Source of the DNA: Polynucleobacter sp. | GTDB lineage: Bacteria; Pseudomonadota; Gammaproteobacteria; Burkholderiales; Burkholderiaceae | DNA: 64,000 bases | Assembly (NCBI RefSeq): GCF_040400325.1 | Contig: NZ_JBBAQK010000010.1 | Location: 7,698 to 71,697 of the forward strand | Direction of reading: 5' to 3' | Notes under the pieces: generated by a model | Database searches by the model: none | The model's input: the letters and a program-made list of their open reading frames with translations, nothing else | Told to the model about the DNA's origin: nothing | Shown here: positions 34,039 through 54,459 of the stretch, in pieces | How the letters are laid out: each line of letters opens with the position of its first letter | Position numbering within the stretch: position 1 is the first letter of the stretch | Program-made: the position numbers and the translations under genes

Positions 34039-34053
34039 TATTGCATCGCAACA
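34039..34053. promoter_or_regulatory. TATTGC-ATC-GCAACA dyad (PhaR-like box) upstream of the Crp/Fnr gene
   Basis: TTGC-N3-GCAA dyad. A near-identical copy is at 53535-53549. Confidence 0.45.
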
Positions 34054-49455: not shown

Positions 49456-50979
49456 TTACGTCGTATATTGCTGACGCAGGATATTCTTTTGTACTTTTCC
49501 CATCGCATTTCGAGGTAAGTCTGCAACGATTTCTAAACGCTTCGGGATCTTGAAGTTGGCGATCTGAGATTTCAAGGTCGCAATCATCACCTCAGCATTG
49601 AGCTTTGCACCTGCTTTTGGTACAACTACCGCCATCACCGCTTCACCAAAGTCCGGATGTGGAATACCAATTACCGCACTCTCATCAACGCCATCCATAT
49701 CATCGATGAAACTTTCGATTTCTTTTGGATACACGTTATATCCACCAGAAATAATCAGGTCCTTACTGCGCCCCACAATACAAAGATAATCTTTTGGTGC
49801 TTTACCACCATTTGCATCGCCACCCCAGCGACCAACGTCACCAGTTTTGAACCAACCATCTTTAGTAAATTCTTCTGCAGTTTTCTCCGGCATCCGCCAG
49901 TAACCCTTAAAGACGTTCGGACCCTTGACTTCAATATTGCCGATTTCATCAACGCCACAGGGTTTGATATTGTCATTGACAACGCGCACCTTAACACCAG
50001 GTAGCGGCAAGCCAACTGAGCCACCTATTCGATTACCTTTGTAGGGATTAGAGACCAACATGACGGTTTCACTCATGCCATAACGCTCTAGAATCGGCTC
50101 GCCAATCACTTGCTTAAACGTATTAAATGTTTCAGTTAACAGTGGCGCAGAACCAGAAATAAATAAACGCATATTGCGTGCTACCTGCTTATTAAAGCCT
50201 TTATCAGCCAACAGGCGTACATAGAAAGTGGGCACGCCCATCATCACCGTTGAGGCTGGCATATGTTTAATCAGCTGAGCAGTATCTAGGCGTGGTAACC
50301 AAATCATTTTGCTGCCATTAATCAATGCACCATGGGCTGCGACAAATAAACCATGGACATGAAAGATAGGAAGAGCATGCAGGAGTACATCCCCTTTTTT
50401 CCAAGCCCAAAACTTTTGCAATACCTGAGCATTGCTTCCCAGATTTTGATGAGTCAGCATGGCACCCTTGCTGCGCCCTGTTGTGCCAGACGTATACAAA
50501 ATTGCAGCTAGGTCATCATCTTTTGCGGGAACTGTTTTAAATTGATCGCTCAGATGTGCAGCACGGTCTAGTAGGGTACCTTTGCGATCCTCATCTAAGG
50601 TAAACACATGTTTAGTGCCTGCTTTAAACGCGACTTTTGAGACCCATGAAAAATGCTTACTACTGCAAACAAGCACTGCGGGTTCTGCATTCTCAATAAA
50701 GTATTGGATCTCAGCTGCTTGATAAGCGGTATTTAAGGGGAGATAAACATATCCTGCGCGAATGGTTGCCAGATACAAGAAAAGCGCTTCAGGTGATTTT
50801 TCCACCTGAACCGCAATCCTTGAACCAGCAGGAAGTTTAAGGCTCTTCAGCAGGTTAGCCATCTTTGCAGTGGCCCGCTCTAGATCACTCCATGAGTAGT
50901 ACAAACCATCGTGTGTTTCTAGAGCACATGCTTTCTTATCTCTTGGAAAACCTTTTTCCAATAGCGAATACAAATTCAT
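49456..50979 (-). CDS. matB: Malonyl-CoA synthetase
   Basis: YTSGTTGRSKG, LPIFHVHGLF, MGVPTFY, ERYGMSET, GRSKDLIISGGYNVYPKEIE, GKVQKN. Confidence 0.9.
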   Translation of the reverse strand: MNLYSLLEKGFPRDKKACALETHDGLYYSWSDLERATAKMANLLKSLKLPAGSRIAVQVEKSPEALFLYLATIRAGYVYLPLNTAYQAAEIQYFIENAEPAVLVCSSKHFSWVSKVAFKAGTKHVFTLDEDRKGTLLDRAAHLSDQFKTVPAKDDDLAAILYTSGTTGRSKGAMLTHQNLGSNAQVLQKFWAWKKGDVLLHALPIFHVHGLFVAAHGALINGSKMIWLPRLDTAQLIKHMPASTVMMGVPTFYVRLLADKGFNKQVARNMRLFISGSAPLLTETFNTFKQVIGEPILERYGMSETVMLVSNPYKGNRIGGSVGLPLPGVKVRVVNDNIKPCGVDEIGNIEVKGPNVFKGYWRMPEKTAEEFTKDGWFKTGDVGRWGGDANGGKAPKDYLCIVGRSKDLIISGGYNVYPKEIESFIDDMDGVDESAVIGIPHPDFGEAVMAVVVPKAGAKLNAEVMIATLKSQIANFKIPKRLEIVADLPRNAMGKVQKNILRQQYTT

Positions 50980-51009: not shown

Positions 51010-51993
51010 TTAGTCAAGCGTTGCGCCCGACTTTTTCACCACAGCGCTCCAGCGAGCAATATCTGCACTCACTAGCTTACCAAAAGCATCACCGGTCAAG
51101 TTAGGTGTATCTGAACCGTTCTTTTCCCAAATTGATTTCATTTTTGGAGTATTTAGTGCCTTTTGGACTTCTACAATCATCTTATCGACGATCGGTTTTG
51201 GAGTGCCAGCAGGCGCAAAAAGAGAGTACCAAGTTGAAACGAGATAGTCAGGTAATCCAGCCTCTTGGAATGTCGGGACATTTGGGATAGCAGAACTACG
51301 TTTGTTTGAGGCTACAGCGATTGCCACCAATTTACCCGCATTAATTTGAGGAGCAGAAGTTGCTAGACCATCAAATTCAAGATCAATTTGCCCTGCCAGT
51401 AAATCATTCATTGCTGGGCCAGCACCCCGATATGGAATATGAGTAATAAAGGTGCCTGTCTGAATTTTATATAACTCGCCAGCAAGGTGATGCACAGTAC
51501 CACTACCAGCGCTTGCATAATTATATTTGCCTGGATTTTTTTTCATTAATTGCTCGAATTCTTTTGCATTACGAGCACTGACACGGCTAGGATTCACTAC
51601 CAATACTTGCGGCACGTTCGCTATCATCGCAACTGGGATGAAATTCTTCTCTATATCGTAGTCCAAATTTTTATACATGGATGGCGCAATCGTGTGATGT
51701 GACGCCCCAACAAACCAGGTATAGCCATCAGGGGCAGCTTTTGCGGCAACAGATGCACCTACTGTACCGCCAGCACCACCTCGGTTATCGATGAGAATCT
51801 GCTTTCCGAGTTGCTCTGTCAATTGAGCCGCTAAAGGTCTTGCAAAGGCATCTGTTCCACCACCAGCCGGAAACGGATTTATAAAGGTGATTGGTTTGTT
51901 GGGCCACTCTTGGGCCAGTGCAATCAATGGGCTTGCGCATAGTATTACCAGTACTTTCTTGAGCAATCCATTTAGATTTACTTGCTTAGTCAT
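51010..51993 (-). CDS. Tripartite tricarboxylate transporter substrate-binding protein (Bug/TctC)
   Basis: PFPAGGGTD, NRGGAGG, YASAGSG, HIPYRGAGPA, PNVPTF. Confidence 0.9.
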   Translation of the reverse strand: MTKQVNLNGLLKKVLVILCASPLIALAQEWPNKPITFINPFPAGGGTDAFARPLAAQLTEQLGKQILIDNRGGAGGTVGASVAAKAAPDGYTWFVGASHHTIAPSMYKNLDYDIEKNFIPVAMIANVPQVLVVNPSRVSARNAKEFEQLMKKNPGKYNYASAGSGTVHHLAGELYKIQTGTFITHIPYRGAGPAMNDLLAGQIDLEFDGLATSAPQINAGKLVAIAVASNKRSSAIPNVPTFQEAGLPDYLVSTWYSLFAPAGTPKPIVDKMIVEVQKALNTPKMKSIWEKNGSDTPNLTGDAFGKLVSADIARWSAVVKKSGATLD

Positions 51994-52120: not shown

Positions 52121-53425
52121 TTATGGCGTCATTAAACGCCCTACTGCGCGAGAATAATCAATTTCTCCCTGGGTAAAACGCTCATGGTTCTCCTCCACTG
52201 AAGAAAGATCATATAAATAATTCACCATTAGCGAAGCAGATTGGCGCAAACCCTTACGGGATAGGTCGCCAGCCCAATTGATTTGATGTAATCTGGCGCC
52301 GTTACTCAAGTGAAACTTAGCCACAGGGTTACCATTTCTTCCGGCTGAACCCAGGCCCAAATAAAGACTGGCTAAGCATAACAAGGCTGATTTTTCTTTT
52401 TGAGTTGCATTATCAGGATGCCAACCAGCATTTAAACGCTCAGGCCAAGAGTGATGGTTCAGGCCCATCGCTTCTAATGCCTGATCTCGCGCAGTTCGAA
52501 TCGCAGGCTTAAGTTGTGTACCTGATTTTTGATCGCTAATATCAGCGCCAGCAGCGATCCAATCTATGAATCCAGGAATAGGAGAAAGTGTGACAAAGGT
52601 TTTTAAACTGGGGAACTCCGCATGCAATTGCTCTGCAACCCGCTTGATTAAAAAATTGCCCATCGATACACCACGTAAACCAGGCTCGCAGTTACTAATC
52701 GAGTAAAAAGCTGCAACTTTATATTGAGATGCTTGATGCATGGTCTCTGCCTTTTTATCAACCAAAGGCATGACGATCGCTGGAATTTCAGGTAACAGCG
52801 CAACCTCAACGAATATCAGGGGTTCATGGGGCAATTGCGGATGAAAAAATGCGAAACATCTGCGATCCGGCTGCAGCCTCCTGCGCAAGTCATCCCAACC
52901 ATCAATAGCATGCACCGCCTCATGTTGAATTAGCTTTTCCAAGACCTCTGCTGGTGACTTCCAATCCACCCGGTGCATTTTTAGAAAGCCGGGATTAAAC
53001 CAAGAAGATAGTAAGTGGCGTAAATCAAAATCAACCGCAGTTAACTCAGGCTGCTTATCTAATAATTGCAATAAGTCTCGGCGCATTTCTACTAAAGCTC
53101 CTGTGCCATCACTTGCACGATTCAGACGACGAAATAATTCCTGTCTTGGGGGTTCAGCAACGCGCTGTAAGTTAATGTAATTTCGTGCATTTGCTTCTAC
53201 TGCAAAATGTTGTGCGGCAGTCATCACTGCTGTTGGATCAGGGTTGAGCTTTTCAAATAAGAACGTAAAAAATTTGACATGCTGATCTTTAGATAGCTTA
53301 CGATAGTTATGAATCACCTCATTTGCCATGCTGACAGCATTTGATTCTCCTCGCTCAGATGTGAGACGATTTACAGCCCCAGTGAGGCGTGAAAAATAGC
53401 GGGCTTTTGCAAGCTTTTCAAGCAT
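52121..53425 (-). CDS. Malonyl-CoA decarboxylase
   Basis: RQELFRRLN, WFNPGFL, HEAVH, DRRCFAFFHP, FYSISNC..GL.GVS.GNFLIK, TLSPIPGF, VAKFHLSNGA. Confidence 0.92.
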   Translation of the reverse strand: MLEKLAKARYFSRLTGAVNRLTSERGESNAVSMANEVIHNYRKLSKDQHVKFFTFLFEKLNPDPTAVMTAAQHFAVEANARNYINLQRVAEPPRQELFRRLNRASDGTGALVEMRRDLLQLLDKQPELTAVDFDLRHLLSSWFNPGFLKMHRVDWKSPAEVLEKLIQHEAVHAIDGWDDLRRRLQPDRRCFAFFHPQLPHEPLIFVEVALLPEIPAIVMPLVDKKAETMHQASQYKVAAFYSISNCEPGLRGVSMGNFLIKRVAEQLHAEFPSLKTFVTLSPIPGFIDWIAAGADISDQKSGTQLKPAIRTARDQALEAMGLNHHSWPERLNAGWHPDNATQKEKSALLCLASLYLGLGSAGRNGNPVAKFHLSNGARLHQINWAGDLSRKGLRQSASLMVNYLYDLSSVEENHERFTQGEIDYSRAVGRLMTP

Positions 53426-53449: not shown

Positions 53450-53463
53450 AGCGATTAATCGCT
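53450..53463. promoter_or_regulatory. Perfect 14-bp palindrome AGCGATTAATCGCT upstream of mcd (candidate operator)
   Basis: Exact self-complement, 25-38 bp before the mcd ATG. Confidence 0.45.
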
Positions 53464-53526
53464 TAGCAAAACGAATGTATATCTATCAACTTTATGCTAA
53501 TCATTAGACTACAAAAAGAGGATAGT

Positions 53527-53643
53527 TCATTGATTATTGCGATGCAACATGTGGGCTTCATCTGCAGCTTTTGAAAGACTTCCAGTCTTTACAAATGAGC
53601 AGAGTATTTCTAGTTTACGGAGTGTGACTTCTTCATTCAACAT
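53527..53643 (-). pseudogene. Truncated LysR-type regulator (MdcR-like) N-terminal HTH remnant, 38 codons
   Basis: Manual translation MLNEEVTLRKLEILCSFVKTGSLSKAADEAHMLHRNNQ*. Fits the LysR start pattern and the EE(I/V)TL(R/K)KLE opening I recall for MdcR. Below the ORF-track size cutoff. Confidence 0.8.
53535..53549. promoter_or_regulatory. TATTGC-GAT-GCAACA dyad (PhaR-like box) upstream of the malonate operon
   Basis: Same flanks as 34039-34053 with the central triplet inverted. Confidence 0.45.
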
Positions 53644-53655
53644 AGAAAGGAAGCT

Positions 53656-54459
53656 TTATCCCCTAAATACTGATGCTGTCTTAGATTTAAAAATAGTCAG
53701 AAGATAAATGCCAAAAATAATCATGGGAATACACAGCCATTGACCCATTGAGAGCCCAAGTCCCAGGAGCCCCAGAAAAGTATCAGGCTCGCGGGCATAT
53801 TCAGCCATAAAGCGAAAAATTCCATAGCCTAGCAAGAAGAAACCAGAAACTTGTCCAACACGGCGAGGTTTGCCAGAATAGATCCACAATGCGATGCCTA
53901 GCAGAACACCTTCACCGAAGAACTGGTAAACCTGCGAAGGGTGCCTTGGTATGGAATCAACCATAGGGAACACCATTGCCCAGGGCAGATCTGTTGGTCT
54001 ACCCCAAAGCTCGCCATTAATGAAGTTTCCAAGACGCCCGAAAGCCAAACCAAATGGCACTAAAGGGGCTACTAAATCACTCACCACAAAGAAAGAAGTT
54101 TTACGTTTACGTGCAAACCAATACAACGCTAGTAGCACGCCTAATAGTCCGCCATGGAAAGACATGCCACCTTCCCAAATTTTGAGAATATCTAAAGGAT
54201 GCGCCAGATAATACCCTGGCATATAAAAGAGGCTATAGCCGATTCGGCCACCTAAGACTACCCCCAATACTCCAGCAAATAGAAGATCTTCTAGATCTTT
54301 ATAAGTCCAAGCTAATGCTTGATAGCGCGGCGCCCGAATGCGCAATCTGCCTAACAATAAAAATTGTGCAAAGGCTAAGAGATACATCACCCCATACCAA
54401 TGAATGGCAAAAGATCCGATTCGGATTGCTGCTGGATCAATCTCAGGATGAATCAACAT
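53656..54459 (-). CDS. lgt: Prolipoprotein diacylglyceryl transferase
   Basis: [41 protein letters not shown]. Confidence 0.96.

Follow-up and report, generated by a model that had tools for sequence, protein, structure and literature searches.

Background

Polynucleobacter is a model genus for genome streamlining in freshwater plankton. Malonate assimilation varies among its species (PMC5018217). In the genome analysed here (assembly GCF_040400325.1), a malonate gene module is preceded by an open reading frame (ORF) of 38 codons that resembles the beginning of a LysR-type regulator gene. This raises the questions of what the ORF is, how it arose, and by what means the malonate genes behind it may now be transcribed. 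These questions were addressed in a stretch of 64,000 nucleotides (contig NZ_JBBAQK010000010.1, positions 7,698 to 71,697 of the forward strand), hereafter the window, and by comparison with other Polynucleobacter genomes. We consider it very probable that the ORF is a LysR stub left by a single deletion, that the operator of the lost regulator has decayed, and, with lower confidence, that the malonate genes may now be transcribed otherwise.

Results and discussion

Gene organization around the short ORF

The following genes, all on the minus strand, make up the locus:

53656..54459, minus strand: lgt, prolipoprotein diacylglyceryl transferase (Pfam LGT, 263 bits)
53643..53527, minus strand: remnant ORF of 38 codons, MLNEEVTLRKLEILCSFVKTGSLSKAADEAHMLHRNNQ*, stop included; LysR-type (MdcR-like) regulator gene, by orthology
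52121..53425, minus strand: mcd, malonyl-CoA decarboxylase of the matA type, intact, first gene of the module (Pfam MCD and MCD_N)
51010..51993, minus strand: TctC/Bug-family periplasmic binding protein, second gene of the module (Pfam TctC, 233 bits)
49456..50979, minus strand: malonyl-CoA synthetase of the matB type, third gene of the module (NCBIfam NF005702 malonyl-CoA synthase, 844 bits, cut-off 558)

The lgt gene is the last of a tight pepA-holC-lgt run (holC and pepA assigned by Pfam), in which the holC stop codon overlaps the lgt start; the ATG of mcd lies at 53425. The closest relative is a metagenome-assembled genome (MAG) from Lake Mendota, referred to here by its locus, L050, whose lgt and mcd products are 97% and 96% identical to those of our genome at the amino acid level. 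Relative to L050, dN/dS amounts to 0.097 for mcd and 0.056 for lgt, and the changes assigned to our own branch with L049 as outgroup are mostly synonymous in both genes (synonymous to non-synonymous, 11:6 in mcd and 16:3 in lgt), so both flanking genes are intact and constrained.

The short ORF descends from a LysR-type regulator gene

The ORF starts with an ATG at 53643, 12 nt past the lgt stop codon (which ends at 53656), and its length, position and spacing agree with those given in an initial annotation made from the letters alone. Two pieces of different origin compose it:

53557..53643, minus strand: 5' piece, ancestral codons 1-29 (blastn against L050 and codon table)
53527..53556, minus strand: 3' piece, ancestral last 9 codons and stop, AHMLHRNNQ*

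The 5' piece covers helix 1 and the beginning of helix 2 of the winged HTH, and the recognition helix is missing. Residues 8-32 of the product match positions 1-25 of the 60 positions of the Pfam HTH_1 profile (PF00126), a match which is weak when taken alone (E = 7.9e-4; 19.8 bits, under the gathering score of 26.6). The initial proposal that the first helices of a LysR HTH are encoded here was therefore decided by orthology with the full-length LysR genes found in synteny, rather than by the profile. The tblastn search of the peptide that had been suggested along with it retrieved, in congeners, the N-terminus of full-length LysR proteins with 72-86% identity (E between 1e-12 and 1e-14) over codons 1-29 or 1-32. 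A second match joined residues 27-37 of the remnant to the C-terminus of the same gene, about 870 nt further on, where the orthologues read ARMLHRNN- in place of the AHMLHRNNQ* of the 3' piece. The same annotation had let LysR similarity end near codon 30, at the start of the motif TGTTGCATCGCAATA; the motif does lie at that place, but similarity resumes at codon 30 with the last nine codons of the gene.

A LysR-type regulator (LTTR) is defined by a complete HTH_1 domain of 60 positions and a LysR_substrate effector-binding domain; the remnant retains profile positions 1-25 of the former, and the latter is absent from its 38-aa product. Orthology, in sequence and in synteny with the intact genes at the same lgt-mcd position, nevertheless ties it to this family, and the remnant, as judged from its sequence, descends from an LTTR gene and encodes no LTTR. 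It displays the marks of a pseudogene, i.e. truncation with respect to its orthologues, loss of essential domains and relaxed constraint. On the last point, the own-branch codon changes in the stub (L049 as outgroup) comprise one synonymous and four non-synonymous substitutions, namely R19K, A24S and T26A in the N-terminal piece and a change from R to H in the C-terminal piece, and R19K and T26A alter residues otherwise conserved among the orthologues examined. The contrast with lgt and mcd combined (1:4 versus 27:9, synonymous to non-synonymous; Fisher p = 0.028) involves just five substitutions in the stub, and within this small sample it fits the neutral drift of a dead stub. Based on sequence and gene order together, the 38-codon ORF is a non-functional remnant, or pseudogene stub, of a 302-codon LysR-type regulator gene. 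It also constitutes a likely annotation trap, as a 38-aa 'HTH protein' of this kind is not a regulator.

A single deletion between two short microhomologies

A blastn comparison with L050 returned two pieces, the first of which is 95% identical, contains the end of lgt and codons 1-29, and ends in ...GCAGATGAA, while the second begins at TGAAGCCC. TGAA is common to both pieces, which in L050 coordinates lie 792 nt apart. The difference corresponds to an in-frame deletion of 792 bp, or 264 of 302 codons, that fused codons 1-29 to the last nine codons and the stop. The junction is placed as follows:

53557..53560, minus strand: deletion junction, 4-nt microhomology TGAA at both breakpoints (blastn against L050)

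If the microhomology is extended, 7 of 9 nt match, and the 5' breakpoint in L050 falls within a small 5-bp hairpin. In a DNA search of 241 Polynucleobacter genomes the junction was contiguous in our genome only; every other match is interrupted at query position 103-104, with the remainder, where found, displaced by 790-900 nt. The stub was thus made by one deletion between the two TGAA microhomologies after the split from the closest sampled sister, and what was lost with it comprises recognition helix, wing and linker as well as the entire effector-binding domain. That most of a LysR gene had been deleted was already part of the initial proposal, and is borne out by direct comparison with L050 and with about 41 intact orthologues.

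The junction is known from a single draft assembly, which comprises 54 contigs and is 92.8% complete. Metagenome contigs were scanned for a 25-mer spanning the junction and for a 25-mer shared with the sister, in both cases without an exact match, and neither the 38-aa peptide nor the MCD protein, when looked up by identity, led to an independent contig with the junction. A look-up of lgt retrieved one Logan contig (L079, SRR10607553) with pepA-holC-lgt and an Lgt protein identical to ours. Its last 129 nt, which is the extent compared, match the window exactly, and the contig ends 9 nt into the remnant ORF, an end that could reflect strain-level branching in that sample.

A relocated copy of the regulator was also considered and rejected, given that the best LysR paralogue in our genome is 24% identical; no paralogue above that value was found in the 92.8% complete assembly, and the remaining 7% or so of the genome could hide one.

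Intact orthologues and likeness to MdcR

The mcd locus was taken from 24 congeners and the regulator was scanned on one genome per species. In about 41 Polynucleobacter genomes the lgt-mcd interval is occupied by an intact LysR gene, co-directional with its neighbours, that encodes 300-305 aa and starts 3-15 nt past the lgt stop; the full-length gene that the initial annotation had expected at this position in relatives is thus present there. In L050, HTH_1 matches residues 8-62 (profile positions 1-55, 42.6 bits) and LysR_substrate residues 94-294 (98.8 bits).

MdcR is the LysR-type regulator of the mdc malonate decarboxylase operon of Klebsiella pneumoniae (Peng et al. 1999, PMC93650, as referred to in PMC11495319). 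Adjacency to malonate genes, which would be expected of an MdcR-like LTTR, is invariable in Polynucleobacter, where the intact orthologue is always found directly upstream of mcd-tctC-matB. It extends beyond the genus as well: among the best out-of-genus homologues, which share 42-45% identity, those of two Oxalobacter genomes have MdcH/MdcG/MdcE as neighbours, and the one in a Telluria MAG is located upstream of MatC-MdcA. As with K. pneumoniae MdcR, the Polynucleobacter LTTR is therefore encoded next to malonate catabolic genes, and its homologues at 42-45% identity accompany mdcA/E/G/H in Oxalobacter and Telluria. Unlike MdcR, its target would be the malonyl-CoA synthetase/malonyl-CoA decarboxylase route (matB/matA) and not a multi-subunit mdc decarboxylase, its gene stands in tandem downstream of lgt and is not divergent from its target, and our genome keeps just 38 codons of it. 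No NCBIfam model reached its cut-off on the intact LysR or on the GntR-type protein described below; the best matches of the LysR protein were to unrelated equivalogs that stayed far under their thresholds, such as GltC with 104 bits versus 350. The mdcR-like designation in the initial annotation therefore holds by genomic context, within and outside the genus, and it is in this sense that we call the lost regulator MdcR-like.

Two database entries with homologous genes carry labels that look like binning or label errors. A 1.1-kb contig labelled as a Candidatus Methylopumilus MAG (L066) bears a Polynucleobacter-type lgt-lysR pair with an Lgt 95% identical to that of the window, and a scaffold labelled as an Alistipes senegalensis MAG (L073) contains a LysR homologue (42% identity) whose match coordinates equal those of an Oxalobacter formigenes MAG locus (L074).

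Decay of the putative LysR operator and the putative mcd promoter

The lysR-mcd spacer was aligned across the 41 intact loci, and roles as operator, promoter hexamer or transcription start were assigned by conservation and spacing. Two blocks are at least 90% conserved, a palindrome, ATTAACTTnAAGTTAAT, which contains T-N11-A, and a second box, TTAATTGATT. In all 41 loci the second box stands at the same offset of 32 nt from the palindrome, and TACATT follows TTGATT at 17 nt. LTTR-controlled promoters are laid out with a recognition site and an activation site (RS/AS), the former with T-N11-A (review PMC11495319). If TTGATT-17-TACATT is read as -35/-10, the centre of the palindrome would fall near -63 and the second box over the -35, a textbook LTTR layout, and in the relatives the mcd promoter may thus be controlled by LysR in the classical LTTR manner.

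Both blocks follow the presence of the gene. The palindrome carries 0-2 mismatches in the 41 intact and in two frameshifted loci, and at least five in all 17 LysR-less loci; the second box carries 0-1 mismatch in the same 43 loci and, among the LysR-less ones, is kept in L005 only. In the palindrome of L034, ATTAGCTTAAAGCTAAT, symmetric double changes affect the two arms (A to G, T to C) and keep the dyad, as expected if it is the site of a dimeric protein.

In our genome the corresponding region contains:

53485..53501, minus strand: ATTAGCATAAAGTTGAT, decayed copy of the palindrome with 3 mismatches to ATTAACTTnAAGTTAAT, putative LysR recognition site
53474..53484, minus strand: place of a net 37-nt loss that took the conserved TTAATTGATT box (putative activation site/-35 TTGATT; blastn gaps against L050)
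53450..53463, minus strand: AGCGATTAATCGCT, perfect 14-nt palindrome in the mcd leader, absent from L050

The three palindrome mismatches fall at positions invariant elsewhere. The gaps in the mcd leader relative to L050 measure 25 and 12 nt, bringing the palindrome to 76 nt from the ATG as against 113 nt in L050, and the -10-like TACATT is retained (53479..53474, minus strand). An LTTR-controlled promoter, with a highly symmetric T-N11-A site near -65 and an activation site over the -35, is consequently no longer recognizable in our genome. Once the regulator was gone, its operator sites would have decayed, and because of the three palindrome substitutions and the 37-nt loss of the second box the ancestral inducible promoter would no longer be usable.

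A scan for consensus sigma-70 promoters found no site in the 230-bp lgt-mcd interval, a scan which also misses the TTGATT-17-TACATT candidate of the sister; its only minus-strand match lies inside mcd. The remaining hexamers in the interval form a usable sigma-70 promoter at no spacing, and no terminator is predicted between lgt and mcd.

The palindrome AGCGATTAATCGCT sits 25 nt upstream of the mcd ATG, differs from L050 by about seven substitutions and folds into a weak 5-bp hairpin. It was considered as the site of a new regulator and rejected, its only near-copy in the genome (C15:20137, within a GntR-family ORF) being about the chance level.

The regulator slot across the genus

In a maximum-likelihood tree of MCD and Lgt, our genome is sister to L050 with a support of 100, and both are nested in a clade of 20 taxa, 17 of which have an intact lysR. 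Across 58 loci, the absence of LysR requires 5-7 independent changes. The slot between lgt and mcd occurs in several states: an intact LysR in about 41 genomes, a frameshifted gene in two, the in-frame stub in one (our own, among 241), clean absence in 13 and replacement by a GntR-type gene in four. Where the gene is cleanly absent the lgt-mcd spacer spans 56-180 bp; within this group, L005 represents a recent loss, with its second box kept and its palindrome decayed. No relocated copy was found in the LysR-less congeners, whose paralogues are just 22-25% identical. The view of the locus as a snapshot of genome streamlining, put forward in the initial annotation, is supported by a regulator lost at least five times in the genus and a half-way junction seen only here among 241 genomes.

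The replacing gene encodes a GntR+FCD regulator of 220-234 aa and is found in the slot of four deep-branching species (L020-L023, in G012, G007, G006 and G020). Since a GntR/FCD regulator occupies the same slot in these four congeners, the slot is suggested to hold the regulator of the module. The stop codon of the GntR-type gene overlaps the mcd start, and a repeat containing TGTATAC, TGTATTCAAAAATGTATACAAAATACA, lies upstream of it. This type of regulator is not found at our locus; its best homologue in our genome, 43% identical, lies elsewhere (G000:C6:102655-103293) and has an internal TAA stop, and may be another decaying regulator gene.

MatR is the GntR-family regulator of the Rhizobium matABC malonate operon. 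The Polynucleobacter module follows the same enzymatic route, through malonyl-CoA decarboxylase and synthetase, and GntR+FCD regulators occupy the slot in the four species mentioned; unlike MatR, the remnant in our genome derives from a different protein family, LysR. Pseudogene stubs formed by microhomology-mediated deletion are general in bacterial reductive genome evolution, and ours resembles them in being short and in frame, in its 4-nt microhomology, in its relaxed constraint and in the decay of an orphaned operator. It shares with such reductive decay the parallel losses in relatives, including a congener of symbiont-like genome size (1.55 Mb) with lysR and mcd pseudogenes. In contrast to typical decay, the structural genes of our genome are intact and constrained, and only the dedicated regulator and its operator were removed. 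The stub is thus a case of ordinary gene decay, a well-known kind of event, of which it is an unusually clean new example; its value lies in being a dated intermediate in a recurrent process, to which the genus-wide slot states and the co-decay of the operator add interest.

The frameshifted genes are those of L071 and G022, both with multiple frameshifts. In the 1.55-Mb congener (L028, G022:C1:420005-421388), lysR has several stops and frameshifts and mcd is a pseudogene truncated after about 119 codons, with both operator boxes still perfect, as though the malonate module in its entirety had decayed recently. In an uncultured Polynucleobacter MAG (L071) lysR is split near codon 210-233, and in P. 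hirudinilacicola (L064) mcd appears in two overlapping tblastn pieces with a frameshift near codon 225; these two splits may be either real pseudogenes or assembly errors.

Alternative explanations

An intact LysR gene of about 900 bp might still be present in the strain and have been collapsed or skipped by the assembler. The genome is a 54-contig draft, the Logan contig with the identical lgt stops 9 nt into the ORF and no second assembly crosses the junction, all of which would be compatible with such an artefact; yet the breakpoints share only 4 nt, far under any assembler k-mer, there is no repeat to be collapsed, and the junction lies inside a 95-kb contig. Moreover, the 37-nt loss and the three operator substitutions are independent neighbouring lesions that fit an old and real loss, and the stub itself shows a non-synonymous excess. 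We regard an assembly artefact as extremely improbable. Hardly more credible, and still very improbable, is the view that selection maintains the ORF, be it for a functional micro-protein or as an upstream ORF with a regulatory role: the deletion is in frame, start and stop were kept and the ORF is open, but an in-frame outcome has a prior of one in three, and nothing is left in the peptide of the recognition helix, wing or dimerization linker (HTH_1 of the sister comprises residues 8-62). Its own-branch changes are mostly non-synonymous and strike otherwise conserved residues (R19K, T26A), the look-up gave no identical or similar short gene on record, and no other genome among the 241 has this form.

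A further alternative concerns not the stub but its ancestor, which could have been a mere neighbour of mcd that controlled something else. LTTR genes are usually divergent from their targets, and the tandem, co-directional placement of this one, 3-15 nt after lgt, is atypical; this and the lack of an NCBIfam equivalog at cut-off would favour such a view. Against it stand the strict synteny with mcd in about 41 genomes and the occurrence of both conserved blocks, palindrome and second box, in the lysR-mcd spacer of every genome that bears the gene, with the palindrome missing wherever the gene is missing and the second box then surviving in L005 alone. The out-of-genus homologues (42-45% identity) that flank mdc malonate decarboxylase genes, and the GntR/FCD regulator in exactly that slot in four congeners, argue in the same direction, and we consider it unlikely that the lost LysR was not a regulator of the malonate genes.

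A probable PhaR-type box and the present control of the malonate genes

The motif in the 3' piece of the ORF coincides with a dyad that recurs in the genome:

53549..53535, minus strand: TGTTGCATCGCAATA, codes for MLHRN, one of 14 copies of the dyad TRTTGC-N3-GCAAYA, probable PhaR-type box

This sequence was considered as new sequence at the breakpoint, or as a novel operator, and rejected as either, for in the intact gene it specifies the conserved C-terminal residues MLHRNN. It is inherited coding sequence, with the consensus ATGtTGCAtCGCAA among the orthologues. The last 20 lysR codons have the lowest synonymous diversity in the gene (entropy 0.79-0.91 versus a mean of 1.27), and an Arg codon near its 3' end is CGC in 38 of 38 sequences. 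The comparison with orthologues shows that the putative box at the malonate locus is an old one, embedded in lysR coding sequence and spared by the deletion, and not newly acquired.

PhaR is a PHB-responsive repressor with operators of the TGC-N3-GCA type. TATTGC-N3-GCAACA occurs six times in the genome versus 0.35 times in 400 controls with permuted half-sites. The 15-bp TRTTGC-N3-GCAAYA has 14 genome sites, 12 of them outside ORFs of at least 120 aa, while the non-ORF share of the genome is 10.8% (p = 2e-10). The phaR gene, recognized by its Pfam PHB_acc_N and PHB_acc domains, is preceded by one of the sites at a distance of 14 nt, and 14 congeners share a conserved TGTTGC-N3-GCA located 25-31 nt in front of phaR. 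In sequence, then, the dyad combines the TGC-N3-GCA core, the bias towards non-coding DNA and a copy at the phaR promoter that characterize PhaR operators, and it is probably a PhaR-type box. It resembles PhaR operators in its core and in the copy immediately upstream of phaR; unlike the usual repressor box, which overlaps a promoter, the copy at our locus stands within former codons, and the LysR site follows about 50 bp downstream.

This dyad in the former 3' end of lysR would be the only recognizable control element left at the locus. With lower confidence than we attach to the deletion, mcd-tctC-matB are probably now transcribed by read-through from pepA-holC-lgt, which the tight co-directional packing of these genes and the lack of a predicted terminator would allow, or from a weak new promoter. 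Alternatively, the malonate module may be silent and heading for the state seen in G022. The suggestion in the initial annotation that the operon may be deregulated or rewired to a global regulator would be consistent with the decayed or deleted operator and -35 box. The more specific proposal that the malonate genes moved from inducer-dependent control by LysR to pepA-holC-lgt read-through gated only by a PhaR-type regulator is tentative, and we hold it to be rather doubtful.

If this proposal holds, the lgt-mcd slot, with its at least five losses and its GntR gene in four species, would constitute a natural series in which streamlined planktonic bacteria strip dedicated regulators yet keep the pathway. 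The putative operator being intact exactly where the regulator is present, the genus in any case offers a comparative system for asking whether the loss of a regulator leaves a pathway constitutive, silent or globally controlled.

The dyad copies are distributed over the window (34039-34053 and 53535-53549) and contigs C1, C2, C3, C4, C6, C8, C14 and C16. Among the genes that they precede are phaR, mcd, the Crp/Fnr gene of the oxalate module, bchI/bchH and a bchC-like gene, ilvD and a LuxR-type response regulator gene, kup, an OsmC-like gene and an ArsR-type gene, together with genes for a TRAP-type binding protein and a 2-hydroxyacid dehydrogenase. Taken together, these sites delineate a candidate global regulon of the PhaR type.
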